Origin: Deltaproteobacteria bacterium
GTDB lineage: Bacteria > Desulfobacterota > Syntrophia > Syntrophales > UBA6807
Length of the DNA stretch: 64,000 nucleotides
Reading direction: 5' to 3'
Assembly: GCA_011056835.1 (NCBI GenBank)
Contig: DSDU01000243.1
Coordinates: 6,305-70,304 of the forward strand
In this document: positions 1 to 16,366 of the stretch, one piece after another
Layout of the letters: every line of letters begins with the position of its first letter
Numbering within the stretch: the stretch's first letter is position 1
Notes under the pieces: generated by a model
The model's input: the letters and a program-made list of their open reading frames with translations, nothing else
Databases searched by the model: none
Told to the model about the DNA's origin: nothing
Program-made: the position numbers and the translations under genes

Positions 1-55
1 TCATTTTTTTTAGAAAATCATAAAGTGCTTCTGAGTTTTTGACAACTTCCTTCAT
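1..55 (-). CDS. 5' end of an ORF running off the left edge (MKEVVKNSEALYDFLKKM...); product not callable from 18 codons
   Basis: Minus-strand ATG at 55..53 with AGAGG 6 nt upstream, 19 nt after the stop of the SDR gene. In FAS-II-type operons an acyl carrier protein often follows the ketoreductase, but that is positional inference only. Confidence 0.3.
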   Translation of the reverse strand, partial: MKEVVKNSEALYDFLKKM

Positions 56-74
56 TGCTAACCTCTAATTGTAT

Positions 75-815
75 TTATGTCAGGCCGCCATCTACGACCA
101 GAACCTGACCAGTGATATATCGTGCCCGCTCCGATGCCAGAAATAAAACTGCTTCTGCAACATCCCCGGGGTCGCCGAATCGCCCCATGGGAATCATCCT
201 GAGAAATTCATCCCTGGTTTTATCATCAAGATGTTCAGTCATCGGTGTGGCGATAACACCGGGACATACGGCATTGACAGTCACCCCGAATCGAGCCAGT
301 TCCCGCGCAAGCGATTTGGTAAATGAAATGATCCCGCCTTTTGAAGCCGAATAATTCGTCTGATATGGTCTCCCCGTCAGCGCGGAGGGTGATGTTACAT
401 TAATGATACGTCCGAATTTTCGCCCTATCATTAATCTGACAACGGAACGTGAACACAGGTAGGTACCTTTGAGATTCACGTCAAGAACACGATCCCAGTC
501 ATCCTCATTGAGAAACACAAGCAGTTTGTCCCTGATAATTCCAGCATTATTGATAAGAACGTCCACATACGCCCAGTGATGTAATATTTCTCTGATCATT
601 GCATCCACATCAGACCGGATTGAAACATCCGCCTTGATAAGCAGACACTCTTCCGTCAATGAACGTAATTCCATTTCCGTCTCAGCGGCACTTCTATCGT
701 CGGAAGAGTACGTTACCGCTACACGGGCACCTTCACGGGCAAAAGAAAGAGCCATGGTCTTACCTAATCCCCTGGTCCCGCCGGTAATGACAACACGTTT
801 ATCTCTGTATTCCAT
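75..815 (-). CDS. short-chain dehydrogenase/reductase, 3-oxoacyl-ACP reductase (FabG)-like
   Basis: 246-aa ORF with Rossmann motif TGGTRGLG, NNAG, and catalytic YSASK (YxxxK) after a Ser. This is the classic SDR ketoreductase pattern. Confidence 0.85.
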   Translation of the reverse strand: MEYRDKRVVITGGTRGLGKTMALSFAREGARVAVTYSSDDRSAAETEMELRSLTEECLLIKADVSIRSDVDAMIREILHHWAYVDVLINNAGIIRDKLLVFLNEDDWDRVLDVNLKGTYLCSRSVVRLMIGRKFGRIINVTSPSALTGRPYQTNYSASKGGIISFTKSLARELARFGVTVNAVCPGVIATPMTEHLDDKTRDEFLRMIPMGRFGDPGDVAEAVLFLASERARYITGQVLVVDGGLT

Positions 816-1250
816 ATTGAATGCCGTTACATCGCGCAGTAAATTATCAAAAGACTAATCGAAATGTTTAGCAGAGGAACGGCCTTTGCGCAAGGCTAAA
901 AAAGTATATGTATATCGGCAAGGTACGATCCCTGCAGCATTCATTGATATGTTTTCTGATACAAAGATATTCCCACCCTCAAAAAGAATCACCGGTCGAA
1001 GAAACAGGTGACAGATTCGTATAACCCTGTCATCTTCAGATCATGGTCATTCTGACCAATCAAGAATTTGATGCATCCTTCCCTTCTAAACGTCATGAAA
1101 TGTGTTGTCATCGTACCCATTGAAAATTTCGGGTCGGGAAGCAAACTTTTCACTTTGCAAAAAAACCGTGACGTATTATAGATTGCATTCTCATTGATAT
1201 CGTATAAAAAAACAACCGACGCAACTGTGCCACGCAACAATAAAGATAGA

Positions 1251-2429
1251 ATGAACTCAGACGTATTTATAACAGACGGACACTGGCGAAAATCCCTGGC
1301 AGCCGTAAGGGCTTTGGGAAAGAAGGGAATCAATGTTACGGTTGGTGAAAGCACCCGTCTCGCCACAGCCGTCTTTTCCCGATACTGCCATCGTTCTCTC
1401 GTCTATCCGTCACCGCTCATACAACCTGCTGAATTTATCGACGCCTTGGAAAAAGAACTGTCTCAACATTCATACCGGATGGTCCTGCCCATGGAAGATG
1501 AAACAACCGGCCTCATCTCGCAGCACCATTCGCTTCTGTCTCGACATGCCGCTATTCCTGTCGTTCCATATAAAAAATATTGTCTGGCCCGACGGAAAGA
1601 CGCTGTGCTCCGAATCGCGGAAGAGACAGGAATTCCTGTCCCGAAGACATGGTTTATCGACGATCTTTCACACATCGACCAGGTAAAAAACAGACTCCCC
1701 TATCCCGTCGTCATAAAACCGAGAATCGGGTCCGGCGCCGTCGGAATAACCTATCCCGAAAATGCCGATCAACTTATGGCATACTATCCGAAAATTCATC
1801 GCCATTTCCCCTACCCGTTGATCCAGGAACGCATACCCCGGGAAGGGCCGGGCTACGGGGTATCGCTCCTGTTTGATGAAAACGGTACCGTCAAGGCATC
1901 GTTTGTCCATAAACGCCTGCGGGAATACCCTGTCACCGGAGGTGCAAGCACACTCCGTGAAAGCGCCAGATACGATGACATTCTCGATATGGCGGTAACG
2001 CTGATGAAAAAACTTGACTGGTTCGGGATAGCCATGGTCGAATTCAAGATTGATCCCCGGGACGGAATCCCCAAGCTCATGGAAATCAATCCCCGGTTCT
2101 GGGGATCGCTTCATCTGTCAATCGTTGCGGGGGTGAATTTTCCATATCTCCTGTATCGCATGTCCCGGGGGGAAACATTCGGACCGGTTGAGCATTACAA
2201 ACTGGGGGTGCGGTGCCGCTGGATGCTCCCCGGGGACATTCTCCACTTTATTCACAACCCACGGCGGGCTTCTCTGATTCATGATTTTTTTCGCTTTCGG
2301 GATAATAATACAGCTTACGATATTCTGTCTCTTACCGACCCCCTGCCTGTTATTGGAAGACTGATGACGCCCCTTACATTCCTGTATGATCGGGACATGA
2401 AATACAGGCTCAAAAAGAGAAAGCGATGA
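1251..2429 (+). CDS. ATP-grasp domain protein (carboxylate-amine ligase type), substrate unknown
   Basis: ORF 1194..2429. The in-frame ATG at 1251 (MNSDVFITDGHW...) is preferred over the TTG at 1194. ATP-grasp-like core segments are VVIKPRIGSGAVGI and MVEFKIDPRDGIPKLMEINPRFWGS. The stop overlaps the next start (ATGA). Confidence 0.7.
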   Translation: MNSDVFITDGHWRKSLAAVRALGKKGINVTVGESTRLATAVFSRYCHRSLVYPSPLIQPAEFIDALEKELSQHSYRMVLPMEDETTGLISQHHSLLSRHAAIPVVPYKKYCLARRKDAVLRIAEETGIPVPKTWFIDDLSHIDQVKNRLPYPVVIKPRIGSGAVGITYPENADQLMAYYPKIHRHFPYPLIQERIPREGPGYGVSLLFDENGTVKASFVHKRLREYPVTGGASTLRESARYDDILDMAVTLMKKLDWFGIAMVEFKIDPRDGIPKLMEINPRFWGSLHLSIVAGVNFPYLLYRMSRGETFGPVEHYKLGVRCRWMLPGDILHFIHNPRRASLIHDFFRFRDNNTAYDILSLTDPLPVIGRLMTPLTFLYDRDMKYRLKKRKR

Positions 2430-3298
2430 GCGTACATAACATTCTGACCGTCGACCTCGAGGACTGGTATCACATCTGCGGCGTCGATCAAGTGCTCCCC
2501 GAAGCCGACTGGCCGGACCTTGAAAGTCGTGTGGAGCAGAACACTCTTAAAATACTCGATATTCTCCGCCGACGAACCATTACGGCGACTTTTTTCGTTC
2601 TTGGATACATCGCAGACCGTCATGGCGAGCTCATCAGAAAGATTCATCGTGACGGTCACGAAATCGCCACACACGGATATGCTCACCGGCGAGTCTACAC
2701 CATGACACAGGACGAGTTTCGCAGGGATCTGAAACAGGCGATTGATACCATCACCAGGATCACAGGACGCCCGATCAAGGGATACCGGGCGCCGGAATGG
2801 TCCGTCCGGAATGACTCGCTGTGGGCGCTTGACATTCTCAGGCAGGAGGGATTCGCATACGATTCGAGTATGGCGCCACTACCGATTATCGGTAATTCAG
2901 CCTATCCGAGAGCACCGCACAGACTGGTACTCAATGAGGGTCATATCTGGGAATTCCCGCCACTTACCGCATACACTCCTCTTATCAACCTGCCCGTGGG
3001 CGGAGGATGGGGACTCCGAGTATTTCCATATCGATTGATACACAGATCCATAGAAAAGTTCAACAGGAATGGTGAACCCGCCGTAATCTACGTCCATCCG
3101 CGGGAATTCGACCACAACCCGCCCCGCGTGAAGCTGCCGCTTTCCAAACTCTTTGTTCTGCATGCCCGTGTTGTCACGACGCCTGAGCGACTCGAACGCC
3201 TGCTCGACGATTTCCCCTTCACATCGATCTCCACCGTTCTCGAAAAGAAAACCGTTGCATTTCAGAGACGACATATGTATAAGGAAAAATTCAGCTAA
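2426..3298 (+). CDS. polysaccharide deacetylase family protein (NodB fold, DUF3473/PEP-CTERM-locus-like subfamily)
   Basis: 290 aa. The N-terminal ILTVDLEDWYH and FFVLG...HEIATHGYAH motifs are typical of this deacetylase subfamily. ATGA overlap with the upstream gene and TAATG overlap with the downstream gene. Confidence 0.75.
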   Translation: MSVHNILTVDLEDWYHICGVDQVLPEADWPDLESRVEQNTLKILDILRRRTITATFFVLGYIADRHGELIRKIHRDGHEIATHGYAHRRVYTMTQDEFRRDLKQAIDTITRITGRPIKGYRAPEWSVRNDSLWALDILRQEGFAYDSSMAPLPIIGNSAYPRAPHRLVLNEGHIWEFPPLTAYTPLINLPVGGGWGLRVFPYRLIHRSIEKFNRNGEPAVIYVHPREFDHNPPRVKLPLSKLFVLHARVVTTPERLERLLDDFPFTSISTVLEKKTVAFQRRHMYKEKFS

Positions 3299-3801
3299 TG
3301 ACTGAGATCGTGCTCTATTTAAAAAGCAACCTTGCAGATAACTTCGTTCTCTATTTCATCCCGCTCTATATCGTGGGAGGGAGACCCGTTGCCGTTCTCA
3401 GTGCGCAGTTATTAGGTTATACTGCATTATTTATTGTGCCTGTCGTCGTCATGCTGGACACGTTGCAGATACCAATGTTCTATTATCTTTACGGCGCGCT
3501 GTCTCAACGATTATTGGTACGGAAGCTCTCTGAAAGAGCCAGAAAGAAGGAACGGAAGCTTCACGAATCGCGTTTTTTTCGCTGGATGCAGGTCATGGGC
3601 GCCCCGGGTGTTGTGGCAATAACATTGCTTCCCATGAAAGGGTGCGGCATGTGGAGCGGTGTTCTTCTTTCAAAATTATTAAAGTATCCCAAACCTTACA
3701 GCTATCTGCTTCTGATTCTGGGCAGTACTTTGGGGTGCGCTATTCTGCTGGGAATCGGTGACTGCATCTTGAAGTTATGGTGGATATTAGCCGGCAGCTG
3801 A
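3298..3801 (+). CDS. small integral membrane protein, function unknown
   Basis: 167 aa with about four hydrophobic helices separated by a basic loop (RKLSERARKKERKLHESR). The start overlaps the upstream stop (TAATG). Confidence 0.6.
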   Translation: MTEIVLYLKSNLADNFVLYFIPLYIVGGRPVAVLSAQLLGYTALFIVPVVVMLDTLQIPMFYYLYGALSQRLLVRKLSERARKKERKLHESRFFRWMQVMGAPGVVAITLLPMKGCGMWSGVLLSKLLKYPKPYSYLLLILGSTLGCAILLGIGDCILKLWWILAGS

Positions 3802-3827
3802 AACATACAAAAAGGGGATTCTCACGA

Positions 3828-5198
3828 ATGGTATATACGCTCAAGAGCCGATTTTTAATATACTTGATTAATTTTCTCTTCATTCTTCTCTCGAACATAC
3901 GCAATGATCGATTATTCAGATGGATTTACACCGTATTGGCCTATCTGGCCGAAAAACTGGCTACCAAAGATTATTATGTGGAAAAAATCAAGTGGATCAA
4001 GAGGCTGTTTGACACCAACCACCCCAGCCTCGCCGTCACGAAGAAGATTCTCAGGGGAACAAACCCTCACCACCGGAAAACACTCATCAAGGCGGCAATT
4101 CTCAATCAGCTCCTTATCGGCACGAATAAACGGAAGGAGTTTTCCGAAAGAACCGGAATGCCCTATCCTCCCGGTTTCTTCGTCATCAGTCCAAGCATGA
4201 AATGCAACCTGAAGTGTTACGGATGTTATGCGGGCTCTTACGACAAGAGGGGCGAATTGTCATTTGAAGAAATCGACAGCACACTCACTCAGGCGAAGGA
4301 AATGGGAATGTTTTTCTGTGTCGTGTCCGGCGGGGAGCCCTTTTTTCATCCCCGGATTTTCGATATTTTCAGAAAACACAATGATGTCGTCTTTCACGTT
4401 TTCACCAACGGAACGTTGATCAATAAAGAAACCTGCCGGCGGCTTGTCGATGTCGGCAACATCATACCGGCCATCAGCATCGAAGGATACGAAGAAGAAA
4501 CAGACCTGCGCCGTGGTCGAGGACATTTCGGCAAAATCATGAAGGCGATGGAGCTGCTGAGAGAATCGAAAATACTGTTCGGCTTTTCCGGGACACTGAC
4601 TCGACGGAATACGGAGATTCTTAACAGTGACGAATTCATAGAATTTATGATCGACAAGGGATGTGTGCTGGGGTGGTACTTCATGTATGTTCCCATCGGA
4701 CGGGAACCGAACCTTGAACTCATGCAAACCCCTGAGCAGCGGGGATATCAGTATGAACGATTAACGTATCTCCGGGCAAGCAAACAGATTCTTCTGGCCG
4801 ACTTCTGGCATGATGGACCGTTGGTCGGAGGATGCATCGCCGGCGGCAGAAAATACTTTCACATCAATGCCAATGGAGACGTGGAACCATGTGTCTTCTG
4901 TCATTATGCCACCCACAATATCAGGGCAACCCCTCTGAAGGAGGCTATTTTTTCCCCCATGTTCCGATCGCTGTGTTCTCGACTTCCCCTGTATGACAAT
5001 CTTCTTCGACCATGCACACTTGTCGACAATCCTCAGGTCGGCCGTGATACCATCACGAAATTCGGAGCATATTTCACCCATGAGGGCGCAGAAATCATCT
5101 TTCAGGATCTGGCAGGTGAAATGGATGAGTACGCGCAAAAGTATGCGGTTGTTGCCGACAATCTCTGGAAAAAGTATTTCCCGGCCGAAAAGGGATAG
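3828..5198 (+). CDS. radical SAM enzyme with N-terminal hydrophobic/helical region and Cys-rich C-terminal (SPASM/twitch-like) extension
   Basis: CNLKCYGCYA is a CxxxCxxC cluster motif, followed by a GGEPF SAM-binding motif. The C-terminal part is GGCIAGGRKYFHINANGDVEPCVFCHY plus two further Cys. ATG 3828 (SD AAGGGGA 9 nt upstream) is preferred over ATG 3777, which would overlap the previous gene by 25 nt. Confidence 0.8.
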   Translation: MVYTLKSRFLIYLINFLFILLSNIRNDRLFRWIYTVLAYLAEKLATKDYYVEKIKWIKRLFDTNHPSLAVTKKILRGTNPHHRKTLIKAAILNQLLIGTNKRKEFSERTGMPYPPGFFVISPSMKCNLKCYGCYAGSYDKRGELSFEEIDSTLTQAKEMGMFFCVVSGGEPFFHPRIFDIFRKHNDVVFHVFTNGTLINKETCRRLVDVGNIIPAISIEGYEEETDLRRGRGHFGKIMKAMELLRESKILFGFSGTLTRRNTEILNSDEFIEFMIDKGCVLGWYFMYVPIGREPNLELMQTPEQRGYQYERLTYLRASKQILLADFWHDGPLVGGCIAGGRKYFHINANGDVEPCVFCHYATHNIRATPLKEAIFSPMFRSLCSRLPLYDNLLRPCTLVDNPQVGRDTITKFGAYFTHEGAEIIFQDLAGEMDEYAQKYAVVADNLWKKYFPAEKG

Positions 5199-5216
5199 AT
5201 CACGAGGTCATACCCC

Positions 5217-7754
5217 TTGCATCACATAATTTATCGATTCCACCGGCACATACTGATCCTGACGATCTGTATCACCGTACTGGCCGCAATGTTGGCATTT
5301 CGCCTTCAACTCGACATGAACTTCTACTCGCTCCTTCCCGATCACAATGAGGAAGTGCGGATTTTTTTCGATATCACCGACCGGATCGGGGAGCATTCCC
5401 TCCTGATTGCAGTCATTTCCATACCCTCACGTGACGAAGCCGAAACAGGTGAATCATTTATTGAAACATTTGCGGAGAATCTTGCCGGAAGCCCGCTCAT
5501 CAAAAATGTCACCTATAAGAATGACGGACGTGAATTCCCGTCCGTCTTCGGGACCTTGCTCGACTACCTCCCGCTTTTTCTTCAAGTCGAAGACCTGGAA
5601 CTCCTGGCATCTCATTTAACAGACGAGGAGATCCGTCATCAGGTGCAACAGAATAAACATCTTCTCATGACTCCCTTCGGCATGGCAGCACGAGACATCA
5701 TCGCCGCCGATCCCCTTGGTATTCGGGAACTCTTCGAACATCGGTTCACCTCCCCCGCGGCAAAACAGATAAACTCCGGAAGAACAGGGTTTTTCCGAAC
5801 CGACGACGGTTCAACCTACTTTATCTTCATAAGCCCGCACCGACCGCCTCAGGATCTTTCCTTCAGCAGAGACCTCATGAAAACAGTCGGTCATCTTGAA
5901 CAGTTGTCACTCGAAGACGTGGGGCTCGATTCACGAAGCGGGATTATCGTTTCGTACACGGGCGGATACCCAATTGCCGTTCGTGACGAGGCAACGACAA
6001 AGAAAGATATTGCCGTAACCATCCTGACATCTTTCCTGGCGGTTCTTATTCTATTCGGGATATCATTCAGAACAACACGGGTTCTTTTCTATGTCGCAGC
6101 TTCACTTGTCATAAGCATTCTGTGGACTCTCGGGTTCACCAGTATCATGTTTCACCATGTTAATGTCCTTACCTGCGTATTCTCATGTGTGTTGATCGGT
6201 CTTGGTATTGATTTTGCGATTCACATGGTTAATCGCTACTTTGGAAACGATAAAATCAATCTCCCACCGACACTTCGACTTAAAGAAACATTTCATGAAT
6301 CCGGAATGGGGATTGTAATCGGAGGAATCACAACAGCCGTTGCGTTTTATTCGATAGCCATATCTGATTTTCGCGGATTTCAAGAACTCGGCATTGTCAC
6401 GGGAACGGGAATCCTTATCTGCCTCGCCGTCATGCTGGTCGTCCTTCCCTGCCTTCTGATCTTTTTCTCGACGCAAACAAAAAGCGGACGACCGATTATG
6501 ATCAGTAGATTCGGACTCGAAAAGCCCATGCGCCTGTGCGCTTCATATCCGAAAACAATAATTGCTGCGTTCCTTTTTGTTACGGTTCTCCTTTCGCTCT
6601 CAGGATTTCGCGTCTCTTTCGATGATAATCTCAGGAATTTCCGCCCTGCCGACAGTGAAACTTTTCACCTCCAGGATATGGTCAGTCGCTGGATCGGGGG
6701 ATCGATGGCACAAACAATGATAGTCGTTCAAGGTCCTTCTGAAAAGGATGTCCTGAAAAAGAGCTCTCAAATATTCCATGCCATGAAAGATTTAAAACAA
6801 AACGGCAGGATTGGCGGATTCACTTCGCTGAACCGGTTTATTGCCTCTGCCGAGGAGCAGAAACTTACGGGGCAAATGATCCGAAGCGGGGGAATAGCCT
6901 TTGACCCGGACCGTATTCAGGAGACCTTTAACCGGGCCTGTGACGAAAACGGATTTGCCACGGCAGGTCTCTACGATGACTATTTCAATAAATTACGTAA
7001 AGTCCTGACATCAGAAGAGATAATTCTTCCATCGGCGCTTGGGGAGACTGCCCTCGCACCGCTGATTAAACCGTTTATGGCGGCCATGGAGAAAGACTAT
7101 ACGATAATAACATACATCTTTCCGTTGAAAGACCTCTGGCACCACACTGACACGACGGCATTCAGAGAAACGGTAACAGCCAAGCTGACAGAGGTCGGCC
7201 TGAATAAAGGCGACTACAAACTCACCGGACCAAACCTCCTTACGGGTGAATTGAAGCGGCTTATTATTTCCAACCTCGAATCGTCATTATTGTTGGCGCT
7301 GCTTGCCATTGCGGGAGTTCTCATTCTCTATTATCACTCCCTTGCCTTGTTCCTGCTCTCCATCGTTCCTCTTTTCATCGGACTGACCACTGTGGCAGGT
7401 ATCATGGTTCTTGCGAAACTCGATTTCAATTTCTTCAATATAATCATCCTGCCGATGATTGCGGGAATCGGCATTGACGACGGTATCCACCTCACCAACA
7501 CCTTTCGTCAGGTCACCGGTCATAACTTTTTGAGTGACATGGCACGAACGGGACGGGCGGTCGTCCTGACATCCCTGACAACCATGGCCGGCTTCGGTAC
7601 ACTGGCGCTCTCTCATTATCCGGGATTGAGAAGCATGGGATATGTGGCGGTTATCGGCATCAGCGCGTGCCTCATGGCATCGATTATTATACTTCCCGCG
7701 CTGTACACACTGATATTAAAGTGGAAAAAGCAGGCCAACGGAGCACCAAGCTGA
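5217..7754 (+). CDS. MMPL/RND-superfamily predicted lipid exporter (COG4258-like)
   Basis: 845 aa with a TTG start 9 nt after GAGG. There are two repeats, each a large soluble loop followed by a bundle of about 5-6 TM helices. This is the architecture of MMPL-type exporters found in specialised-lipid clusters. Confidence 0.75.
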   Translation: MHHIIYRFHRHILILTICITVLAAMLAFRLQLDMNFYSLLPDHNEEVRIFFDITDRIGEHSLLIAVISIPSRDEAETGESFIETFAENLAGSPLIKNVTYKNDGREFPSVFGTLLDYLPLFLQVEDLELLASHLTDEEIRHQVQQNKHLLMTPFGMAARDIIAADPLGIRELFEHRFTSPAAKQINSGRTGFFRTDDGSTYFIFISPHRPPQDLSFSRDLMKTVGHLEQLSLEDVGLDSRSGIIVSYTGGYPIAVRDEATTKKDIAVTILTSFLAVLILFGISFRTTRVLFYVAASLVISILWTLGFTSIMFHHVNVLTCVFSCVLIGLGIDFAIHMVNRYFGNDKINLPPTLRLKETFHESGMGIVIGGITTAVAFYSIAISDFRGFQELGIVTGTGILICLAVMLVVLPCLLIFFSTQTKSGRPIMISRFGLEKPMRLCASYPKTIIAAFLFVTVLLSLSGFRVSFDDNLRNFRPADSETFHLQDMVSRWIGGSMAQTMIVVQGPSEKDVLKKSSQIFHAMKDLKQNGRIGGFTSLNRFIASAEEQKLTGQMIRSGGIAFDPDRIQETFNRACDENGFATAGLYDDYFNKLRKVLTSEEIILPSALGETALAPLIKPFMAAMEKDYTIITYIFPLKDLWHHTDTTAFRETVTAKLTEVGLNKGDYKLTGPNLLTGELKRLIISNLESSLLLALLAIAGVLILYYHSLALFLLSIVPLFIGLTTVAGIMVLAKLDFNFFNIIILPMIAGIGIDDGIHLTNTFRQVTGHNFLSDMARTGRAVVLTSLTTMAGFGTLALSHYPGLRSMGYVAVIGISACLMASIIILPALYTLILKWKKQANGAPS

Positions 7755-7915
7755 ACTGAAAGGATTCTGCGCTTCACCTGAGTTCCATCTTTTTTCGCCG
7801 CGGCAGTGCCCTCACATTCGATATGGTGTCACCTCGGGCACAGAGAATAGATTAGCGGTTGTATTATTCAGTCAAATTGTTTAAACAAAACTGCAAATCA
7901 TGGGAGTGACACGAT

Positions 7916-8155: not shown

Positions 8156-8193
8156 GGTTTCATAAACAAATTCAAAAAAGGCGGATTGAAAAT

Positions 8194-8418
8194 ATGCGGT
8201 ATGTGTTCAGATCAAAGGTCGGTACGTTTTCCATAGAATCCGACGAAGTTCACTGGGACATGGTCCAGCTCTGTCTGGGCGGTCTCTGGCTCCGAACGGT
8301 GGAAACCGCCGAAGAAGCGGCACGGTTCGTATACGAACAGAAAACCGGACTGCATGAATGGGATACGCTCACCGAAATCGAGGCACCATCCGATCTCTCA
8401 GGATGGGAAACCGTATAA
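8194..8418 (+). CDS. small hypothetical protein
   Basis: 74 aa with globular-looking composition (MRYVFRSKVGTFSIESDE...) and a weak SD (AGGCGGA). An overlapping antisense ORF at 8250..8525 looks less protein-like. Confidence 0.45.
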   Translation: MRYVFRSKVGTFSIESDEVHWDMVQLCLGGLWLRTVETAEEAARFVYEQKTGLHEWDTLTEIEAPSDLSGWETV

Positions 8419-8569
8419 AGGCCGCAACTCAATGACCCGGTCATCAGCGGAACGTCATACCACGATGTATCGGGAACCCGGCAATGGAATGAACAACGCG
8501 GAGAAGTGACGATGATACAGTCCATGAACTATCCCCTGCAGCTTTCGGCTTACGCTGTTCCGTCATTGA

Positions 8570-9250: not shown

Positions 9251-9545
9251 GGTGCTCTCTACCTTTCAGGATGACGGTCTCATTCCGATCTCTATCAGAC
9301 GGTGCCCACAATAACAGGAATTAGGAAAGATTTCTATCATTTCTTGTTCAGGCATGCTGAGAAATCGACAGATTCATGCTCTAACAGTCCGTTAAAAAAG
9401 CTTGATCCCGATGCCGTTCACCGGAGTCCGCAGGCACGACCCTCCGAATCCCTGCATGATTCTGCTCACAGCCTGAAACACTGGACAATTCAGTGTGAGA
9501 AAAATCTTCAGACACCGGGAGATTTTCGACTGCACAAAAACTATT

Positions 9546-10391: not shown

Positions 10392-10964
10392 TCATATGCC
10401 TTTCTGCGGCGATTCGGCCCGTTCCTTCAACTTATCGAGAAACGCTTCAACCATGACATTGTGCTTCAGCCTGATCTTGAGATTCCAGAATATACGACGG
10501 ATGTATCCCCTGGGCTCTACAATTATTGTCTGGATTACCAGCGTCCCCTCATCGACGCGCTCCAGTTCCCATAGTTCCGTTCCTCCGGCGAAGAAGCCGT
10601 CACGAAAACTTAACCGTATCCGATCACAGGGAGCAACCTCTTCAACGCGAGACGTCCAGCCAAGCTTGAATATATGTTCGATCTTCGTCGTAACAACGGT
10701 TCCCTGCTGATACGGCAGCAGCGGTTCGAAGCTCACCATGGTTCCGCTGGGACAGAACGTCTGAAACGTTTCTTCATTCGTCAGCAATTCAAAAATCCGT
10801 TTTTTATCCGCGTTGACGAACCTCTCATGTCGATTGATTTCTCCCGCATAACCATGATAGTCGGGAGCGTCAACCGTGTATTTCGTCGAACAGCCGACCA
10901 GGCAGATCATGATGAACATACACCATGTTTTTCGAAAGAGATGAATCGCAGTGTGCCGATGCAT
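10392..10964 (-). CDS. lipoprotein, possibly SRPBCC (START/polyketide-cyclase-like) fold
   Basis: 190 aa with lipobox LVGC after a hydrophobic leader. The size and alternating beta/helix pattern are compatible with an SRPBCC ligand-binding fold. The fold assignment is tentative. Confidence 0.5.
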   Translation of the reverse strand: MHRHTAIHLFRKTWCMFIMICLVGCSTKYTVDAPDYHGYAGEINRHERFVNADKKRIFELLTNEETFQTFCPSGTMVSFEPLLPYQQGTVVTTKIEHIFKLGWTSRVEEVAPCDRIRLSFRDGFFAGGTELWELERVDEGTLVIQTIIVEPRGYIRRIFWNLKIRLKHNVMVEAFLDKLKERAESPQKGI

Positions 10965-11199
10965 TTTGTTTATCCCGACGCCGCTCAGTTAACAATTAGA
11001 CTGCCGTGGAACCTGCGGGTAAAAGCCTCAAATTTGAGTTTGACTTTTTTTTCTGATATTTGTACACAGTTTTTCTTGCACTCAAGTATTCCACTGTTAC
11101 AGGAAAGCGAAATTAAACATACAATCAAATCAGTGTAAAGATTTTTTTATCCACGCAGGATTGCCGAACATCACGAATCCGATCGACAGCCCGGAGAGC

Positions 11200-11958
11200 A
11201 TGAAAATCATGAAGGTTCTTTTTTACTGGGTCCTCTACCCGTTAATACGTCCCTTTTATCTGATATCCGTTATCCTGAATACGCTTATCCTGGGCATCAT
11301 TGTGATTGTTATTTCTTTTTTTGATAAAAGAGGCACTGTTGTTCACTATATCGGCCGATTCTGGTCGCTTCTCAACGTTTATCTTTCCGGGACGCAGGTG
11401 AAAATCAAGGGTAAGGAAAAGATAGATACAAGCCGTTCATACATTGTCATGTCCAATCACCAGAGTTTATTCGACGTCTGGGTCCTGATAGGGAAGCTTC
11501 CGCTTCAAATCAGGTGGATTGTTAAAAAAGAAATCCGCAAGATCCCCGTCTTCGGCTATGCTCTCGAAAGAATGGGACACATTTATATCGACAGGGGCAA
11601 CCGAACAGATGCATACGCAGGGCTGAACGAAGCCGCCCGCAGAGTCAAAGAAGGAACATCAGTGATAATTTTTCCTGAAGGAACACGAAGCAAGGATGGC
11701 CGGTTACTGACGTTTCGCCTTGGGGGAGCGGTGCTGGCACTCAGATCAGGGGTTTCGATCCTGCCGGTTACGGTCAACGGCGGCCGTTTTGCCCTTCGAA
11801 AAGGAACGCTGGATCTGTTGCCGGGGAAAATGGAGATTGTTGTCGGCGATGAAATCGATCCGAAACGTTTCGGAGAGAATGACGGTGAAGCGCTGATGGA
11901 AACAGTGCGGTCATTTATTGAAAAGAATCTCGATCTCTCATACGGGGAAATCCCGTGA
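11200..11958 (+). CDS. 1-acyl-sn-glycerol-3-phosphate acyltransferase (PlsC/LPLAT) family protein
   Basis: HX4D motif NHQSLFD, FPEGTRS motif, and an N-terminal TM helix. The start is ambiguous: the track gives TTG 11161, and ATGs occur at 11200 and 11209. Confidence 0.8.
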   Translation: MKIMKVLFYWVLYPLIRPFYLISVILNTLILGIIVIVISFFDKRGTVVHYIGRFWSLLNVYLSGTQVKIKGKEKIDTSRSYIVMSNHQSLFDVWVLIGKLPLQIRWIVKKEIRKIPVFGYALERMGHIYIDRGNRTDAYAGLNEAARRVKEGTSVIIFPEGTRSKDGRLLTFRLGGAVLALRSGVSILPVTVNGGRFALRKGTLDLLPGKMEIVVGDEIDPKRFGENDGEALMETVRSFIEKNLDLSYGEIP

Positions 11959-11997
11959 GCACGTAACCACCATGAAAGGTTCGAACAATCTATCTCA

Positions 11998-12897
11998 ATG
12001 AGAAAACACGCCCTTGACAGCCCACTATCATATTATGCCATCTTCCTTACCGTCCGGTATTTGCCCGTCCGGCTTTGTCACTGGCTTGGAAAAATGGTGG
12101 TCCTGCTGGTGTACGCATTTTCCGACCGTGACCGGGACGGCCTCATGAACAATCTCTCGCTGGCTCTGAACAGACCACCGACCGATCCGCTTATACGGCG
12201 AACAGTCCGCGGAATATTTTTAAACTACGGACACTACATGGTCGATTTCTTCCTCATACCTCAGCTTCCACCTTCTAAAGTCCAAAAGTTCTTTGCCGAC
12301 ATTCAGGGGGAAAATGTTCTTAAAGAGGCACTGGCGAGAGGAAAGGGGGCCATTTTCGTATCAGCCCATGTGGGGAACTGGGAAATCGGAGGAAGCTTAC
12401 TCCGTCTTATGAATTACCCCCTGGCGGTCGTGGCGATATCCCATAATGCGGGAGCGACAAACACCCTCGTGAACCACCTCCGCCGGCACAGAGGAACCGA
12501 CATAATAGAAATGAACCCTCTGTCGCCGTTTTCGGGTCTTCAAATCCTGAAGCACCTCAGAATGAATAAAATCGTCGCCATGGTCGGAGACAAGGACTTT
12601 TTCGGGCGGGGAAAATCCGTGACATACTTCGGGGAAAAGGTGGATTTTCCCATCGGTCCTGCCATGGTGGCCATGAAATCGGGGGCACCGCTTATTCCCG
12701 TTTTCATAATAAAACAGCCTGACGGACGATATGTGGGCATTCTGGAAGAAGCAATTCCCGTTTCGGATCAAGGCAACGAAGAGATGGTTCTCGACACGAC
12801 CCTGAACAAACTGGCACGGGTGTTTGAATCATATATTCGCCGATATCCCGACCAGTGGTATTGTCCCGATCCCATCAGCAAAGGGGAAATGCCGTGA
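11998..12897 (+). CDS. lysophospholipid/lipid A-type acyltransferase (LpxL/HtrB family-like)
   Basis: 299 aa with an N-terminal hydrophobic segment. SAHVGNWEIGG resembles the HxGNWE active-site region of the lauroyl/myristoyl acyltransferase family. Confidence 0.65.
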   Translation: MRKHALDSPLSYYAIFLTVRYLPVRLCHWLGKMVVLLVYAFSDRDRDGLMNNLSLALNRPPTDPLIRRTVRGIFLNYGHYMVDFFLIPQLPPSKVQKFFADIQGENVLKEALARGKGAIFVSAHVGNWEIGGSLLRLMNYPLAVVAISHNAGATNTLVNHLRRHRGTDIIEMNPLSPFSGLQILKHLRMNKIVAMVGDKDFFGRGKSVTYFGEKVDFPIGPAMVAMKSGAPLIPVFIIKQPDGRYVGILEEAIPVSDQGNEEMVLDTTLNKLARVFESYIRRYPDQWYCPDPISKGEMP

Positions 12898-14171
12898 AAC
12901 TTCATTTGATCATACCAAAATGGCCCGCCGACAGTCTCTGGGGTCAGATTTACTTTCGATTCCCCTATCTCTCCGTAACGACCGTGGCGGGGTTGACCGG
13001 TGACAGCTGGGAGGTTTCTATCATCGACGAAAATGCTGAACCGCTGGACTTTTCCAATCCGCCGGACCTTGCGGCGATCTCGATCATGACTCCCCTGGCA
13101 ACGCGAGGATACGAAATCGCGGACACATTCAGGAAACGAGGCGTTCCCGTCATTATCGGCGGCATTCATGCAACAACGATGAAACATGAGGCGAAACGTC
13201 ATGCCGATTCCGTGGTGACGGGCGAGGCGGAAGACACGTGGCCCCGGGTTCTGTCAGACTTTCTTGAGGGAACCCTCCAGCCTTTTTATGAACCGCAGCA
13301 TTTTCATTCATTGGTGAATCTCCCCCTTCCGCGGCGAGACCTCCTCAATCGCAGGAAATATTTTTTCACCAACACAATTCAGACGACCCGTGGGTGCCCC
13401 TTCGACTGCGATTTCTGTTCGGTCACCTCGTTCTACGGCCGCACCTATCGCGTCCGGCCGATCAATGATGTTGTTGATGAAATCAGCCGGATGGAAAAGG
13501 GATTCCTGTTTTTTGTGGACGACAACATCGCGGGGAGACCCGCCTATGCAAAGGAACTGTTCAGGACCCTCATCCCGATGAAGATCAAATGGTTCAGCCA
13601 AGCATCACTGAACATTGTAAAAGACCGGGAATTGCTGGCGTTGGCACAGGACAGCGGATGTATGGGATTGTTCATCGGCTTTGAATCTCTATCGCAGGAA
13701 AACCTCAAAGCCATGGGAAAATCGATGAATCGTGCGGCGGAATACCGAAGCGCCATACAAACGATACACGACCATGGAATCGGTATCCAGGGTTCGTTTA
13801 TCTTCGGAACCGATTATGATGATAAAACCGTTTTTCCCGATGTGCTTCGATTCATTGAAAGAACCCGCATCGAGGCGGCCTTGTTTTCGATTCTGACACC
13901 ATATCCGGGAACCCGCGTCTACGAAGCACTTGTTCGGGAAAACAGGATCATCGACACAAACTGGGAGCACTACGATATGAATCACGTCGTTTTCACGCCG
14001 AAGAACATGACTGTGGACGAACTGCAGGACGGCTTCACATGGGCATATAAGCGTTTGTACGGTCTCCGCTCCATTGCGTTGAGACTTCTTCCATTGAATA
14101 AGAACAGTCTTTTTTTCGGCATACAGAACTACGGTTTTCGTCAAGCTTGGAAAAAAACGCTTCGGGGGTAG
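12894..14171 (+). CDS. B12-binding-domain radical SAM enzyme (class B)
   Basis: The N-terminal Rossmann-like B12-binding region (DLAAISIMTPLATRGYEIADTFRKRGVPVIIGGIHAT) is followed by CPFDCDFC (CxxxCxxC). GTG 12894 overlaps the upstream stop (GTGA). The track's longer ATG at 12855 would overlap the previous gene by 43 nt. Confidence 0.8.
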   Translation: MKLHLIIPKWPADSLWGQIYFRFPYLSVTTVAGLTGDSWEVSIIDENAEPLDFSNPPDLAAISIMTPLATRGYEIADTFRKRGVPVIIGGIHATTMKHEAKRHADSVVTGEAEDTWPRVLSDFLEGTLQPFYEPQHFHSLVNLPLPRRDLLNRRKYFFTNTIQTTRGCPFDCDFCSVTSFYGRTYRVRPINDVVDEISRMEKGFLFFVDDNIAGRPAYAKELFRTLIPMKIKWFSQASLNIVKDRELLALAQDSGCMGLFIGFESLSQENLKAMGKSMNRAAEYRSAIQTIHDHGIGIQGSFIFGTDYDDKTVFPDVLRFIERTRIEAALFSILTPYPGTRVYEALVRENRIIDTNWEHYDMNHVVFTPKNMTVDELQDGFTWAYKRLYGLRSIALRLLPLNKNSLFFGIQNYGFRQAWKKTLRG

Positions 14172-14172
14172 C

Positions 14173-14850
14173 ATGATTCGACGATACGGTACTTGTCTGC
14201 TCATTTTAATAGGTTTTCTCTTCATTCCACACAAGGGGATATCCTCGCCGGTTTCGAGCCAGGACGAGTCGGCGCGTATCGTACAGCAGTTGAAAGAACG
14301 GGAAAAATCCCTGAATACGCTCACCGCAACGTTCATACAGGTAAAATCAACCCGCCTGTTGAAAGAGCCGTTGCACTCCGAAGGAACGATTTACTTCCAG
14401 GCGCCGGGGATGATGCTCTGCAAAATTCTCAACCCGACACCGGTCACGTTGCTCTTTAAAAACAGGCTGTTCCTCGTGTATTATCCGAACACGGGGAAAA
14501 GCAAAGAACGATACCTGGGTAACAATATCCTTAAAGAATATTTCGGCATGGGAAAACCGGTCGAGGAATTTGAAAAGCATTATGCTTTTACCCTCGACTC
14601 TATCGGCAATGACGGCACATACCATCTGAAGCTGATCCCGAGACAGAAAAGAATGGCACAACGCATCGAAATAATTGAAATGGACATTGCCCCCGATCAA
14701 TGGCTGCCCCGCCGTATTGACATACTGGAAAAGAATGGTGATTTTACGTCAATACGCCTGGAGTTCACATCGATAAATGAACCACTGGCAGCGGAAATAT
14801 TTCTGGTCGATATCCCTGATGACGGGAGAGGCATGGGAAATGGAAAATAA
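14173..14850 (+). CDS. LolA-like outer-membrane lipoprotein carrier family protein
   Basis: 225 aa with a signal peptide. The pattern LTATFIQVKSTRLLKEPLHSEGTIYFQAPGMM is typical of LolA-fold proteins. ATG lies 1 nt after the upstream stop. Confidence 0.6.
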   Translation: MIRRYGTCLLILIGFLFIPHKGISSPVSSQDESARIVQQLKEREKSLNTLTATFIQVKSTRLLKEPLHSEGTIYFQAPGMMLCKILNPTPVTLLFKNRLFLVYYPNTGKSKERYLGNNILKEYFGMGKPVEEFEKHYAFTLDSIGNDGTYHLKLIPRQKRMAQRIEIIEMDIAPDQWLPRRIDILEKNGDFTSIRLEFTSINEPLAAEIFLVDIPDDGRGMGNGK

Positions 14851-15787
14851 CCTCATTTTTCTCTACCCCGGGCAGGGATCACACTACAGGGGCATGGGAT
14901 ATGACATCTACGAATCATTCCCGGAAGCCAGGAATATCTTTGATCGTGCCGACGGTCATCTGGATTTCTCCCTAAGACGACTCTGTTTCGAAGGTCCCGA
15001 CGAAGAACTGAATTCTGATCTGAATGCGCAACTCGCCGTGTATACCATCAGCTGTGCCATCACTGAAGTGTTACGGGCTCACCGTATCGAACCTCTTATA
15101 ACTTCCGGATACAGTTCAGGCTTCTATGCCGCTGCATATGCCGCCGGTTGCTTTGATTTTACGGATGGTCTTGACCTGGTAAAGCGGGCGGGGGAGATAC
15201 TTCTCGATGAGGGCGGGAATTTTGACGGATGTATGGCAGTTATTTTCGGACTCTCCGGTGAACAGACGGAGCTTATCTGCCGCCGGTCCGGCACGGTTCA
15301 GGTAGCAATCAGGAATACCTCCCGTCAGATTATTGTATCAGGTCTCCGTTCCTCCGTTTCCAAGGCCATGGAAATAGCTTGCGCAGAAGGGGCGCTGGAC
15401 GCGTATTTCCTGGCGGCAGAAACGGCATATCACTCTATATTGATGGCGAACAGCAGCCTCCGTTTTCACACGCATCTTAACACAATCAACGTAGCATCAC
15501 CCCGGGTCCCACTTCTTTCATACAGTTCACTCGACCTGGTAACCGACGGAGAAAAGCTGAAAAAAACAATGGCCGATCAGCTCAGCAGCCCTGTTCTCTG
15601 GGTTGACGTAATAAAGAAACTCCGTTTAAACGATAATTTTATATTCATAGAAGTCGGCCCCGGTTCCGTCATCTACAGAACCGTCAGGTGGATTGACCGA
15701 ACAATCGAAGCCATGATAACGGATAAAGTAAAGACCATTGAAACCATTATCGAAAAATTCGTTAAAAAACCAGGGTGTTGGCGGTGA
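14840..15787 (+). CDS. malonyl-CoA:ACP transacylase (FabD)-like acyltransferase
   Basis: MENNLIFLYPGQGSHY carries the GQGS motif. The nucleophile elbow is GYSSG, where the canonical form is GHSLG. Conserved Arg (KRAG) and His (AYHS) are present. ATG 14840 overlaps the upstream gene by 11 nt; the track's ATG at 14777 would be a 21-codon extension inside that gene. Confidence 0.75.
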   Translation: MENNLIFLYPGQGSHYRGMGYDIYESFPEARNIFDRADGHLDFSLRRLCFEGPDEELNSDLNAQLAVYTISCAITEVLRAHRIEPLITSGYSSGFYAAAYAAGCFDFTDGLDLVKRAGEILLDEGGNFDGCMAVIFGLSGEQTELICRRSGTVQVAIRNTSRQIIVSGLRSSVSKAMEIACAEGALDAYFLAAETAYHSILMANSSLRFHTHLNTINVASPRVPLLSYSSLDLVTDGEKLKKTMADQLSSPVLWVDVIKKLRLNDNFIFIEVGPGSVIYRTVRWIDRTIEAMITDKVKTIETIIEKFVKKPGCWR

Positions 15788-15793
15788 GAAAGG

Positions 15794-16270
15794 ATGACAG
15801 CCATGTTCGATCCGTATATATATGATCTCTCGGAGGTACAGGCGATCCTTCCCCATAGAAGTCCTTTTCTATTCATCGACGGGGTAGTAAGCTTTTCCAC
15901 GGGTAAGAGCATTGTCTGCATGAAACAGCTTCAGGCGGATGACTCGTTTTTTGCAGGTCATTTTCCGGAACGTCCCATCATGCCGGGTGTGCTGATATCG
16001 GAGGCACTTGCCCAGGCATGTGGTCTTTTGGTCGGTCTCACCCTGAAGCGTGACGCCGCCGTTCCCCGGAAAAGTAATTTAAATCTCGTCCTTGCCGGCG
16101 TCAACATGAAATTCATGACACCTGCAAAACCGGGGGATACGCTTCGTCTGGCGGCGCAGCTTCAAAAACAATACGGAAGTTTTTTTCTTTTCACCGTGGA
16201 GGCTTCCATTGAAGATATGAAGATTGCCGGGGGGACGCTGACACTTGCTGAGACGATGCAAAGTCCATAG
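15794..16270 (+). CDS. 3-hydroxyacyl-ACP dehydratase (FabZ/FabA hotdog)-like
   Basis: LPHRSPFLFIDGV and FFAGHFPERPIMPGVLISEALAQ match the FabZ signature. 158 aa. An alternative ATG lies at 15803. Confidence 0.85.
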   Translation: MTAMFDPYIYDLSEVQAILPHRSPFLFIDGVVSFSTGKSIVCMKQLQADDSFFAGHFPERPIMPGVLISEALAQACGLLVGLTLKRDAAVPRKSNLNLVLAGVNMKFMTPAKPGDTLRLAAQLQKQYGSFFLFTVEASIEDMKIAGGTLTLAETMQSP

Positions 16271-16366
16271 AAATACACTTTTGCCCTTCAACGAAGCTCA
16301 ATCCGTTGATATATCATTACTATCGAATATAAGAGTCGAATCAGGAACGATACTACGGGAGATCCA

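Follow-up and report, generated by a model that had tools for sequence, protein, structure and literature searches.

A radical SAM-rich type II fatty-acid synthase gene cluster of Desulfobacterota, probably related to aryl-polyene lipid clusters and to the anammox 'ladderane' clusters

Gene content of the locus

The DNA analysed here, hereafter the window, is a stretch of 64,000 nucleotides from an uncultured Deltaproteobacteria bacterium of the Syntrophales (Desulfobacterota; assembly GCA_011056835.1, contig DSDU01000243.1, positions 6,305 to 70,304 of the forward strand). Its left end carries a gene cluster in which type II fatty-acid synthase (FAS-II) genes are combined with genes for acyltransferases, sugar-modifying enzymes, envelope export and radical S-adenosylmethionine (SAM) enzymes. 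Gene families were assigned from the list of open reading frames (ORFs) and from Pfam and NCBIfam profile scores against their cutoffs (Table 1). The locus is one conserved system of ~24 kb, which extends from ~6.3 kb left of the window to ~18.0 kb within it. All gene calls of an original prediction, made from the letters of the window, are recovered at the same positions and in the same families. The tight packing of the two plus-strand operons is likewise confirmed, with intergenic gaps of -4, -1, 26 and 90 nt in the first and 39, -43, 1, -11 and 6 nt in the second.

Table 1. Cluster genes inside the window, with profile scores in bits.
Feature	Position	Strand	Scores and remarks
Acyl carrier protein (ACP) gene, 5' end, 18 codons	1..55	-	Translation MKEVVKNSEALYDFLKKM, same residues as the N-terminus of the 94-aa PP-binding protein encoded by L001
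FabG-type 3-ketoacyl-ACP reductase (KR)	75..815	-	adh_short_C2 227; first full gene of the leftward chain-building operon
ATP-grasp ligase, carbamoyl-phosphate-synthase-like, PRK12767 type	1227..2429	+	ATPgrasp_Ter 46.9, ATP-grasp_3 38.3; NF009402 97.8, under cutoff; longest ORF from 1227, 1251 being the second ATG
NodB-type carbohydrate de-N-acetylase with DUF3473	2426..3298	+	Polysacc_deac_1 80, DUF3473 106; TIGR03006 255.8 vs cutoff 276.2
Small polytopic membrane protein PF06695 (Sm_multidrug_ex)	3298..3801	+	43.8
Radical SAM enzyme with partial SPASM/twitch domain (rSAM/SPASM)	3828..5198	+	Radical_SAM 71, SPASM 25.7
MMPL/HpnN-like RND transporter	5289..7754 (longest ORF from 5217)	+	MMPL 85; HpnN TIGR03480 276 and BstA 187, both under cutoff
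Class I SAM methyltransferase	9546..10391	-	Methyltransf_23 80; N-terminal Cys4 Zn-ribbon-like motif CCSCILC...CKNC
Lipoprotein, lipobox LVGC	10392..10964	-	Polyketide_cyc2 (SRPBCC) match weak, 18.8 < cutoff 27.4; abuts the methyltransferase translationally
PlsC-type lysophospholipid acyltransferase	11200..11958 (longest ORF from 11161)	+	Acyltransferase 103; TIGR00530 112 > 103; HX4D present
LpxL/PatA-type acyltransferase	11998..12897	+	Lip_A_acyltrans 121.5; top NCBIfam a PIM acyltransferase, 117, under cutoff
B12-binding radical SAM enzyme (B12-rSAM), 'R-type', BchE/HpnR-like	12855..14171	+	B12-binding 41.6, Radical_SAM 54.7
LolA-like periplasmic lipid/lipoprotein carrier, signal peptide	14173..14850	+	LolA 33.8; LolA2_flexi 73.2 < 125
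Divergent FabD-like acyltransferase	14840..15787 (longest ORF from 14777)	+	Acyl_transf_1 89; TIGR00128 217 < 260.9
FabZ-type 3-hydroxyacyl-ACP dehydratase (DH)	15794..16270	+	FabA 78; NF000582 122 > 113; TIGR01750 123 < 155
CsgG-N / six-NHL-repeat envelope protein	16367..18016	-	NHL 159, CsgG 62.5

The flank left of position 1 was recovered by an exact-protein lookup of the short-chain dehydrogenase/reductase (SDR; 75..815) in public assemblies, where contigs from at least five samples extend leftward. One of them, L001, differs from window positions 1..10815 by a single base. Leftward from position 1, it encodes the 94-aa ACP, a 4HBT thioesterase, a 235-aa family 2 glycosyltransferase (GT2), two 406-aa ketosynthases (KS), a 458-aa B12-rSAM and a 264-aa lipoprotein, after which the contig ends. 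This order, in which the second KS takes the place of a chain-length factor (CLF), is common to at least five independent assemblies. The short ORF start noted earlier to the left of the SDR proves to be the 5' end of the dedicated ACP gene, whose first 18 codons occupy window 55..1 on the minus strand. The original prediction had also supposed that KS, CLF, ACP and starter genes might lie left of position 1. The KS, CLF and ACP genes are there, while an aryl-starter enzyme was not found in the extended cluster.

The dedicated ACP passes NF006617 (73.7, cutoff 70) and carries the phosphopantetheine site DSL. The catalytic motifs of the ACP, PlsC, LpxL-like and FabZ proteins are intact. The left B12-rSAM (L001:14733-16109, ~4-5.3 kb left of position 1) scores 369.4 against the TIGR04072 cutoff of 360. 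TIGR04072 is a curated equivalog named 'lipid biosynthesis B12-binding/radical SAM protein' (rSAM_ladder_B12). The B12-rSAM inside the window reaches only 73.9 bits with this model and scores higher with BchE (106.9) and HpnR (100.1). The two enzymes form separate orthogroups and co-occur in 19 related loci. The first KS (KSa) retains the Cys-His-His triad (TACSS / HGTAT / GHCLG). The second (KSb) has Glu, Ser and Asp at the triad positions, which indicates a catalytically dead, CLF-like partner. The top PDB match of KSa is 9s5h_B (307 bits) and that of KSb is 9s5h_C (178 bits), a chain that also lacks the catalytic Cys and His. The entry is a heterodimer of a KS and a dead KS, and KSa and KSb match its two chains reciprocally. 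9s5h is presumably the Brocadia amxFabF2/amxFabFmut complex (bioRxiv 10.64898/2026.05.19.726425), the text of which gives no accession.

The SDR contains the TGxxxGxG, NAG and YxxxK motifs and lacks Yx6K, which identifies it as a ketoreductase and not an enoyl reductase; with the FlxB model it scores 250 (cutoff 340). In the FabD-like enzyme, the nucleophile elbow reads GYSSG where GHSLG is canonical, and GQGSH replaces the canonical GQGSQ. Judged by these motifs, it may load a unit other than malonyl-CoA. FabZ carries an intact HFPERPIMPG motif, and its PDB matches are 1u1z (92 bits) and 8ayc (91 bits). The Pfam scores of this DH for the ApeP-like (18.4, cutoff 27) and ApeI-like (18.9, cutoff 28.5) families are low. 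The lipobox of the lipoprotein beside the methyltransferase bears out its earlier description, and the proposed SRPBCC-like fold is a weak, sub-cutoff match (Table 1). The CsgG/NHL protein is an unusual fusion of a signal peptide, a CsgG-like N-domain, a FlgT_C-like segment and six NHL repeats; its top NCBIfam match is the scytonemin protein ScyF (209 bits, under cutoff), and it is a probable accessory member of the cluster. The extended cluster encodes no enoyl reductase, no AMP-binding or lyase domain, and no FabH, FabI, Acc, PlsX/Y or LpxA/C/D. The genes from the left end of L001 to window position 19009 contain no amine-oxidase/phytoene-desaturase domain.

Only positions 1..33306 of the window are real sequence. 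Self-BLAST of the window aligns 2613..64000 with its own reverse complement over 61,388 bp at 100.000% identity, a perfect palindrome with zero loop and its axis between 33306 and 33307 (AGAGGCT/AGCCTCT). Two independent contigs (L087 and L088), SRR7787793_65 (45 kb) and JGI Ga0212126_1000292 (46 kb), are identical to the window through 33306 and part ways from 33307. Beyond the axis both carry hemerythrin, a thioredoxin-reductase-like gene, HhH-GPD, rplU, rpmA and obg. Since the independent contigs run past the axis into other genes, 33307..64000 is a foldback assembly error that duplicates 2613..33306, and any feature placed in it repeats one in 2613..33306. A genuine inverted duplication of the cluster is ruled out by the zero-loop palindrome at full identity together with the divergence of both contigs at 33307. 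The mirror copy that the original prediction had reported at 50343..64000 is thus present in the letters as an artefact and does not represent a second cluster.

Conservation of the cluster across genomes

To define the extent of conservation, 16 orthologs of the rSAM/SPASM enzyme were aligned and used to fetch 80 loci from species-representative genomes. The 25 cluster proteins were compared with these loci by tblastn and with gene maps, within a flank limit of 10 kb around the rSAM/SPASM gene; neighbourhood counts cover 76-80 loci. The closest rSAM/SPASM relatives are found in a Desulfatiglandales metagenome-assembled genome (MAG; 72% identity) and in a 'Deltaproteobacteria' MAG (68%). At these identities, the host is an uncultured member of the Desulfobacterota for which these genomes include no close representative. 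Two Desulfobacterota MAGs are collinear with the cluster, L008 from the left B12-rSAM through LolA and L007 over its entire 12.5-kb contig.

In the 10-kb flanks of the rSAM/SPASM gene, a B12-rSAM is encoded in 43 loci, GT2 in 35-37, the LpxL-like enzyme in 24-33, the deacetylase in 23-25 and 4HBT in 22-30. The FabD-like enzyme (22-24 loci), the KS pair (21), the SDR (19-21) and the ACP (18-33) follow closely. The most frequent direct neighbours of this gene are GT2 (25 of 76 loci) and the LpxL-like gene (15 of 76), and at a distance of up to three genes a B12-rSAM (27/76), the deacetylase (21/76) or the ATP-grasp gene (13/76) is present. In more than 20 genomes of Desulfobacterota and Nitrospirota, drawn from several orders, the core of the cluster accompanies the rSAM/SPASM gene. 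This linkage outlasts heavy shuffling of gene order in Desulfatiglandales-like, Syntrophobacteraceae, Geobacterales, Desulfuromonadales and Nitrospirota genomes. On these gene counts, the association is far beyond chance, and co-localisation in relatives, which the original prediction had named as a test, is conserved.

Several peripheral genes also travel with the cluster. The PF06695 membrane protein is kept directly upstream of the rSAM/SPASM gene in seven close relatives, and the MMPL transporter occurs in 9-10 related loci. The methyltransferase is retained in L007, L008, L009, L012 and L053, with the SRPBCC-like lipoprotein beside it in L008, L009 and L012. In L009, L010, L011 and L012, the gene that directly follows rSAM/SPASM encodes a CsgG/NHL ortholog (58-60% identity).

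Comparison with aryl-polyene clusters

The cluster proteins were compared by BLASTP with the Ape proteins of the aryl-polyene (APE) cluster of E. coli CFT073 (L091 23728-38749). Eleven of the 18 E. coli Ape proteins have homologs in the cluster. In the chain-building part, the ACP resembles ApeE (45% identity), the SDR ApeQ (38%), KSa ApeR/ApeO (33%) and KSb ApeR (27%). The attachment module is represented by PlsC, which matches ApeD (28%, 1e-14), and by 4HBT, which matches ApeK (33%, 3e-16). The N-terminal half of ApeJ (558 aa) matches GT2 (30%, 8e-26) and its C-terminal half the LpxL-like enzyme (1e-10), which indicates that ApeJ is split into two separate genes here. E. coli apeJ itself (L091 31213-32889), annotated just as 'glycosyltransferase family 2 protein', is a fusion of GT2-like and LpxL-like halves, an architecture that fits the dual glycosyl- and acyl-transfer role proposed for ApeJ. 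Weaker matches link FabZ to ApeP (1e-5), MMPL to ApeM (3e-8) and LolA to ApeL (5e-4). The logic is shared as well: a type II KS/CLF system without enoyl reductase, attachment to a lipid, and then putative RND/LolA export.

The biochemistry of the APE pathway is known from Xenorhabdus doucetiae, whose APE lipid has a glycerol-phosphate-N-acetylgalactosamine (GalNAc) backbone. There, ApeD transfers the conjugated acyl chain made by the cluster to a lysophospholipid, ApeJ attaches GalNAc and acylates this sugar in turn, and ApeM, ApeL and ApeN are the proposed outer-membrane exporters of the product (bioRxiv 10.1101/2020.12.19.423268; PMC8253772).

In contrast to APE clusters, the locus has no BLASTP match to the aryl-ACP synthetase ApeH, or to ApeB, ApeG (COG4648), ApeN (DUF3261), ApeI, ApeC or ApeA. 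The APE CLF is the short ApeC, whereas the CLF here is a full-length dead FabF; the APE DH is ApeP/ApeI-like, whereas the DH here is of the FabZ type. In place of ApeN and ApeG, the cluster holds other lipoproteins, namely the SRPBCC-like protein, the 264-aa protein and the CsgG/NHL protein. Three radical SAM enzymes, the deacetylase, the ATP-grasp ligase, the FabD-like enzyme and the CsgG/NHL protein have no place in the APE system. The lack of an aryl-starter enzyme in the extended cluster excludes an aryl polyene cluster. The original prediction had assigned the locus to APE- or 'ladderane'-like FAS-II lipid clusters; the FAS-II core and the Ape homologs sustain this kinship, and an aryl polyene itself does not follow from it.

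Comparison with the anammox 'ladderane' clusters

Two gene clusters of Kuenenia stuttgartiensis invite comparison. The cluster kuste3603-3608 encodes an ACP, FabZ, FabF, a non-canonical FabF, a phytoene desaturase and a radical SAM enzyme (PMC4790861). The larger cluster kuste3335-3352 encodes a glycosyltransferase, FabZ, two ACPs, FabG, two radical SAM enzymes, three FabF proteins (one non-canonical), two SAM methylases, a deacetylase-like protein, a phytoene desaturase and a phenylacetyl-CoA ligase (PMC4790861). The canonical FAS-II genes of Kuenenia form the separate cluster kustd1386-1391 (PMC4790861). As early as 2009, syntenic clusters were noted in Desulfotalea, Geobacter and Pelobacter, of which Desulfotalea has no ladderanes (Rattray 2009, PMC2649909). 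Metagenome surveys of anoxic habitats report expressed 'ladderane' biosynthetic gene clusters, without an assigned function, in Desulfobacterota and other phyla (PMC9902471). A literature search on TIGR04072 and 'ladderane-like' returned nothing relevant.

The locus shares with the Kuenenia clusters a dedicated ACP, FabZ, FabG, the pairing of an active FabF with a triad-less FabF, a glycosyltransferase, a deacetylase-like protein and a SAM methyltransferase. It also shares the TIGR04072 B12-rSAM with kuste3603-3608, and it has further radical SAM enzymes. Conversely, the phytoene-desaturase-like gene (kuste3607 / kuste3336) and the phenylacetyl-CoA-ligase-like gene of Kuenenia are absent from the locus, while the ATP-grasp ligase, the MMPL pump, the LolA-like carrier, PlsC and the LpxL-like acyltransferase go beyond its inventory. 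The host is a member of the Desulfobacterota and not an anammox planctomycete, and the likeness to Kuenenia is drawn from published gene inventories. The missing phytoene desaturase separates the locus from the anammox version but not from the deltaproteobacterial type. The cluster is therefore best regarded, with reasonable but not high confidence, as the Desulfobacterota counterpart of the anammox 'ladderane' FAS-II/radical SAM clusters and as an aryl-less relative of APE clusters. The extra genes that the original prediction had singled out as unusual are indeed there. They are not peculiar to the locus: the deacetylase, the ATP-grasp ligase, the rSAM/SPASM enzyme and the B12-rSAMs are a conserved hallmark of the cluster type, and a similar set occurs in kuste3335-3352 (PMC2649909, PMC4790861).

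Proposed pathway and product

From gene content and homology, we propose that the cluster probably encodes an APE-lipid-like pathway to an outer-membrane phospho-aminosugar lipid with radical SAM-modified acyl chains. By homology and motifs, the ACP, KS/CLF, FabG-type KR, FabZ-type DH and divergent FabD-like enzyme would build an acyl chain on the dedicated ACP. With no enoyl reductase in the cluster, double bonds may be retained in the chain, a parallel to aryl-polyene systems, provided that the pathway does not draw on the housekeeping FabI. The two B12-rSAMs and the rSAM/SPASM enzyme would modify unactivated carbons anaerobically, by C-methylation, cyclisation or C-C coupling. The rSAM/SPASM gene is linked tightest to the head-group and attachment genes, which suggests that this enzyme acts on the assembled lipid rather than on acyl-ACP.

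By analogy with the APE pathway, the PlsC/ApeD-like enzyme would load the cluster-made chain onto a lysophospholipid. GT2, the equivalent of the ApeJ N-half, would add an N-acetylhexosamine (HexNAc) to the phosphate, and the LpxL-like enzyme, the equivalent of the C-half, would O-acylate the sugar. The NodB-type deacetylase could free the sugar amine, which the ATP-grasp ligase might then re-amidate, and the 4HBT thioesterase may proofread or release the chain. The MMPL/RND pump, the LolA-like carrier and the lipoproteins would carry the lipid to the outer membrane; we infer both the lipid nature of the product and its export.

Several points weigh against this proposal. No product has been established for any member of the cluster type, and the Kuenenia homologs expressed in E. 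coli yielded no new lipid (Javidpour 2016, PMC4790861). The head-group chemistry (HexNAc, de-N-acetylation and amidation), drawn from family-level analogy only, is less certain than the proposal as a whole. The similarity of the export components is weak (ApeM 3e-8, ApeL 5e-4), and BLASTP finds no ApeN or ApeG homolog in the cluster. MMPL, LolA, PlsC, the methyltransferase and the SRPBCC lipoprotein were seen in only 3-10 related loci, those of the closest relatives; these low counts are partly explained by the position of the genes near or past the 10-kb flank limit. The remaining points concern the rSAM/SPASM enzyme: its closest solved folds are peptide-modifying maturases, and outside Desulfobacterota and Nitrospirota its gene occurs without FAS genes, so that its substrate need not be the cluster product.

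The rSAM/SPASM enzyme

The rSAM/SPASM enzyme contains the CX3CX2C motif at residues 126-133 and, in the alignment of 16 orthologs, invariant cysteines at positions 279, 336, 355 and 396. The extra invariant cysteines indicate a partial SPASM/twitch domain. An AlphaFold (AF2) model (pLDDT 87.4, pTM 0.89) predicts a unique five-helix N-domain (residues 1-110) that opens with a hydrophobic helix. The nearest PDB matches, by sequence as well as by fold, are the generic SPASM/twitch enzymes SuiB, SkfB, anSME and PqqE. Identity with Tes/GDGT-MAS (PDB 7TOL/7TOM) was ruled out, as the match amounts to 24 bits on the radical SAM core only, at Foldseek rank 42-46 and TM 0.40, behind the generic SPASM enzymes.

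The enzyme belongs to a widespread uncharacterised family. Orthologs with 50-85% identity are present in Desulfobacterota and Nitrospirota, and the family extends to Actinomycetota (Hydromicrobium, Solincola), Dehalococcoidales, Planctomycetota, Omnitrophota, Patescibacteria, Atribacterota, Armatimonadota, Bacteroidales and Clostridia. In anaerobic Actinomycetota (L057, L060, L062, L065, L069 and L070), an ortholog of ~48% identity lies in a conserved housekeeping neighbourhood with the order thrS - rSAM/SPASM - infC - rplT - pheS - pheT, with no lipid genes near. In Zixibacteria and Planctomycetota, the gene adjoins only a B12-rSAM. Outside Desulfobacterota and Nitrospirota, the gene neighbourhoods are uninformative. 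The family may act on a substrate that many anaerobes share.

A BcrAD_BadFG ATPase and a DUF2229/HGD-D protein adjoin the rSAM/SPASM gene in 8-9 relatives (L009 16001-19228, L010 13026-16219, L037 11332-14374, and also L012, L014, L031 and L047). These are the domain families of the plasmalogen/ether-lipid enzymes PlsA/PlsR and Ger (PMC13159169), and such neighbours tie the rSAM/SPASM family to membrane-lipid remodelling. Neither the window nor L001, both of which were searched, contains these genes.

Alternative explanations

The first alternative shares everything with the proposed pathway except the chemistry. The cluster would make membrane-spanning or cross-linked lipids, with the rSAM/SPASM enzyme as an Mss-type tail coupler and the B12-rSAMs as sources of methyl branches, which would give branched, dimerised (bola-type) lipids and not a simple acylated glycolipid. 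Mss of Thermotoga and Thermoanaerobacter couples the tails of two fatty acyl chains to form diabolic acids. Its confirmed representatives are WP_129545148.1 and Tmari_0825, and the published threshold for homologs is E <= 1e-50 with coverage >= 30%. Like Mss, the rSAM/SPASM enzyme belongs to the radical SAM enzymes found in strict anaerobes, with a strikingly similar phylum spread and a likely role on fatty-acyl lipids; its auxiliary-cluster domain, hydrophobic N-terminal helix and helical N-domain also suit the comparison. The phyla of the family closely match published lists of Mss homologs (PMC13159169; PMC11868695), a circumstantial agreement. The PlsA/PlsR/Ger-like neighbours in relatives point the same way, as does the relationship of the 'R-type' B12-rSAM to the lipid C-methylase HpnR. 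However, the likeness comes from published descriptions and phylum spread rather than from a sequence comparison with Mss, and a homolog search seeded with the Clostridia protein found no Thermoanaerobacter or Thermotoga protein in the best 120 matches. Mss is described with hydrophobic regions near its C-terminus, whereas the hydrophobic helix here is N-terminal. The similarity to the archaeal tail coupler GDGT-MAS (24 bits, Foldseek rank 42) is generic, and the cluster of the window organism is one without the Ger-like genes. Furthermore, diabolic-acid-type lipids do not need a dedicated KS/CLF and an ApeD/ApeJ-like module. Mss is a stand-alone gene that acts on ordinary membrane fatty acids, whereas the rSAM/SPASM gene is embedded among a dedicated FAS, B12-rSAMs and APE-like attachment genes. 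We consider an Mss-type pathway unlikely, with an appreciable residual chance. A broader version, in which the rSAM/SPASM enzyme is a tail-coupling or other C-C-forming lipid enzyme, the B12-rSAMs are chain C-methylases, and the widespread cluster, together with the Ger/PlsA-like neighbours of relatives, equips Desulfobacterota and Nitrospirota with a dedicated anaerobic pathway for envelope lipids that are methyl-branched, cross-linked or membrane-spanning, is given a somewhat slimmer chance still.

A second alternative, which appears distinctly improbable, is that two unrelated operons lie side by side: the first plus-strand operon would serve the modification and export of an exopolysaccharide or a peptide, next to a specialised FAS-II operon. 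The deacetylase is indeed nearest to the XrtA/PEP-CTERM exopolysaccharide deacetylase family TIGR03006 (255.8 bits), SPASM enzymes are typically peptide maturases (the top folds being SuiB and SkfB), an SH3-anchor gene and two small ORFs part the two operons, and many phyla carry the rSAM/SPASM gene with no FAS genes beside it. This explanation is contradicted by the linkage of rSAM/SPASM, deacetylase, GT2, LpxL-like, B12-rSAM, KS/CLF, ACP and FabD-like genes, which persists across rearranged Desulfobacterota and Nitrospirota genomes. In addition, the gene maps of relatives reveal no conserved small precursor-peptide ORF adjoining the rSAM/SPASM gene, and the N-domain is modelled as a five-helix bundle that is not RRE-like. 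The cluster kuste3335-3352 likewise joins a deacetylase-like protein, a glycosyltransferase and radical SAM enzymes with FAS genes.

A true ladderane pathway, that is, the synthesis of concatenated cyclobutane lipids outside anammox bacteria, would account for the KS/dead-KS pair, the dedicated ACP, FabZ and the TIGR04072 B12-rSAM, which are found in the candidate kuste3603-3608, and genome-mining tools do label such clusters 'ladderane' (PMC9902471). Nevertheless, it is very improbable: ladderane lipids are reported only from anammox Planctomycetota, Desulfotalea has the syntenic cluster and none of these lipids (PMC2649909), the locus lacks the phytoene-desaturase-like gene that both anammox clusters have, its closest genomes belong to the Desulfobacterota, and the anammox cluster itself is not established as the ladderane maker (PMC4790861; PMC13459092).

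That the cluster supplies the organism with its ordinary housekeeping enzymes for fatty acids, phospholipids and lipid A is scarcely credible: FabZ (NF000582, 122 > 113), the SDR (NF009466, a FabG subfamily, 256 > 222) and PlsC (TIGR00530) pass their models, but the equivalog cutoffs are missed by FabG (TIGR01830, 291.5 < 297.75), FabD (217 < 260.9), FabF (398 < 493.75) and AcpP (43.5 < 70.45) and in all LpxL models, one KS is dead, the FabH, FabI, Acc, PlsX/Y and LpxA/C/D genes are missing, and the genes are embedded with three radical SAM enzymes, GT2 and an RND pump. In Kuenenia, the canonical FAS-II set lies in a cluster of its own (PMC4790861). The sub-cutoff scores of most enzymes and the GYSSG motif of the FabD-like protein thus argue against sole housekeeping fab/pls/lpx copies, in agreement with the original prediction.

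Significance of the cluster type

This cluster type was first noted in 2009 and is routinely flagged by genome-mining tools, and the locus is one more instance of it, from an uncultured organism. Clusters that combine FAS-II with radical SAM genes are flagged as 'ladderane' across many phyla and are expressed in anoxic habitats (PMC9902471). Three elements are new here: the full set of genes in a Desulfobacterota representative of the type; an explicit map of homologies between this set and the structurally solved aryl-polyene lipid pathway, with GT2 plus the LpxL-like enzyme as the counterpart of ApeJ and PlsC as that of ApeD; and the finding that GT2, LpxL-like, deacetylase and B12-rSAM genes accompany the uncharacterised rSAM/SPASM family. 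From these follows a hypothesis on the product that can be tested, namely a glycerolipid with a phospho-aminosugar head group and radically modified chains, for which cultivable Geobacter relatives offer entry points.

According to a 2026 review (PMC13459092), radical SAM modification of fatty-acyl lipids has been proposed for ladderanes and jawsamycin alone. If the tail-coupling reading were true, the cluster would be the first case of radical SAM tailoring of a fatty-acyl (non-isoprenoid) lipid beyond these two. It would also provide a genetic handle on the unidentified anaerobic producers and methylases of the biomarker lipids of the branched glycerol dialkyl glycerol tetraether (GDGT) type.

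Neighbouring genes and other features

Between the two plus-strand operons, positions 7916-9250, which the original prediction leaves undescribed, encode a 79-aa ORF with a signal peptide, a 74-aa ORF and a TIGR04211 SH3-and-anchor protein (155 bits, cutoff 65), and they look like an insertion. The 79-, 74-, 154- and 288-aa ORFs and the SH3-anchor gene were rejected as cluster members, as they have no Pfam link and no homologs in the 80 related loci. An Rfam scan of positions 1-33400 matched no family, cobalamin riboswitches included. Consensus sigma-70 promoters (25 against 23.5 in shuffled sequence) and intrinsic terminators (22 against 20) occur at the shuffled level and are therefore uninformative on operon boundaries.

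In an uncultured deltaproteobacterial MAG (L016 16581-18941), the cluster is followed by genes for a DUF4197 protein and the type VI secretion protein TssG, which probably belong to a mere neighbour system. Downstream of the cluster in the window, positions 19570-33306 resemble ordinary chromosome, with no mobile-element genes seen. This region encodes an FMN-reductase-domain protein, a pyridoxal-phosphate (PLP) enzyme, a universal stress protein, a DUF4412 protein, a metallophosphoesterase, a 1136-aa GAF/PAS histidine kinase, a metallo-beta-lactamase-fold protein, a PanE-like reductase and a NUDIX protein.

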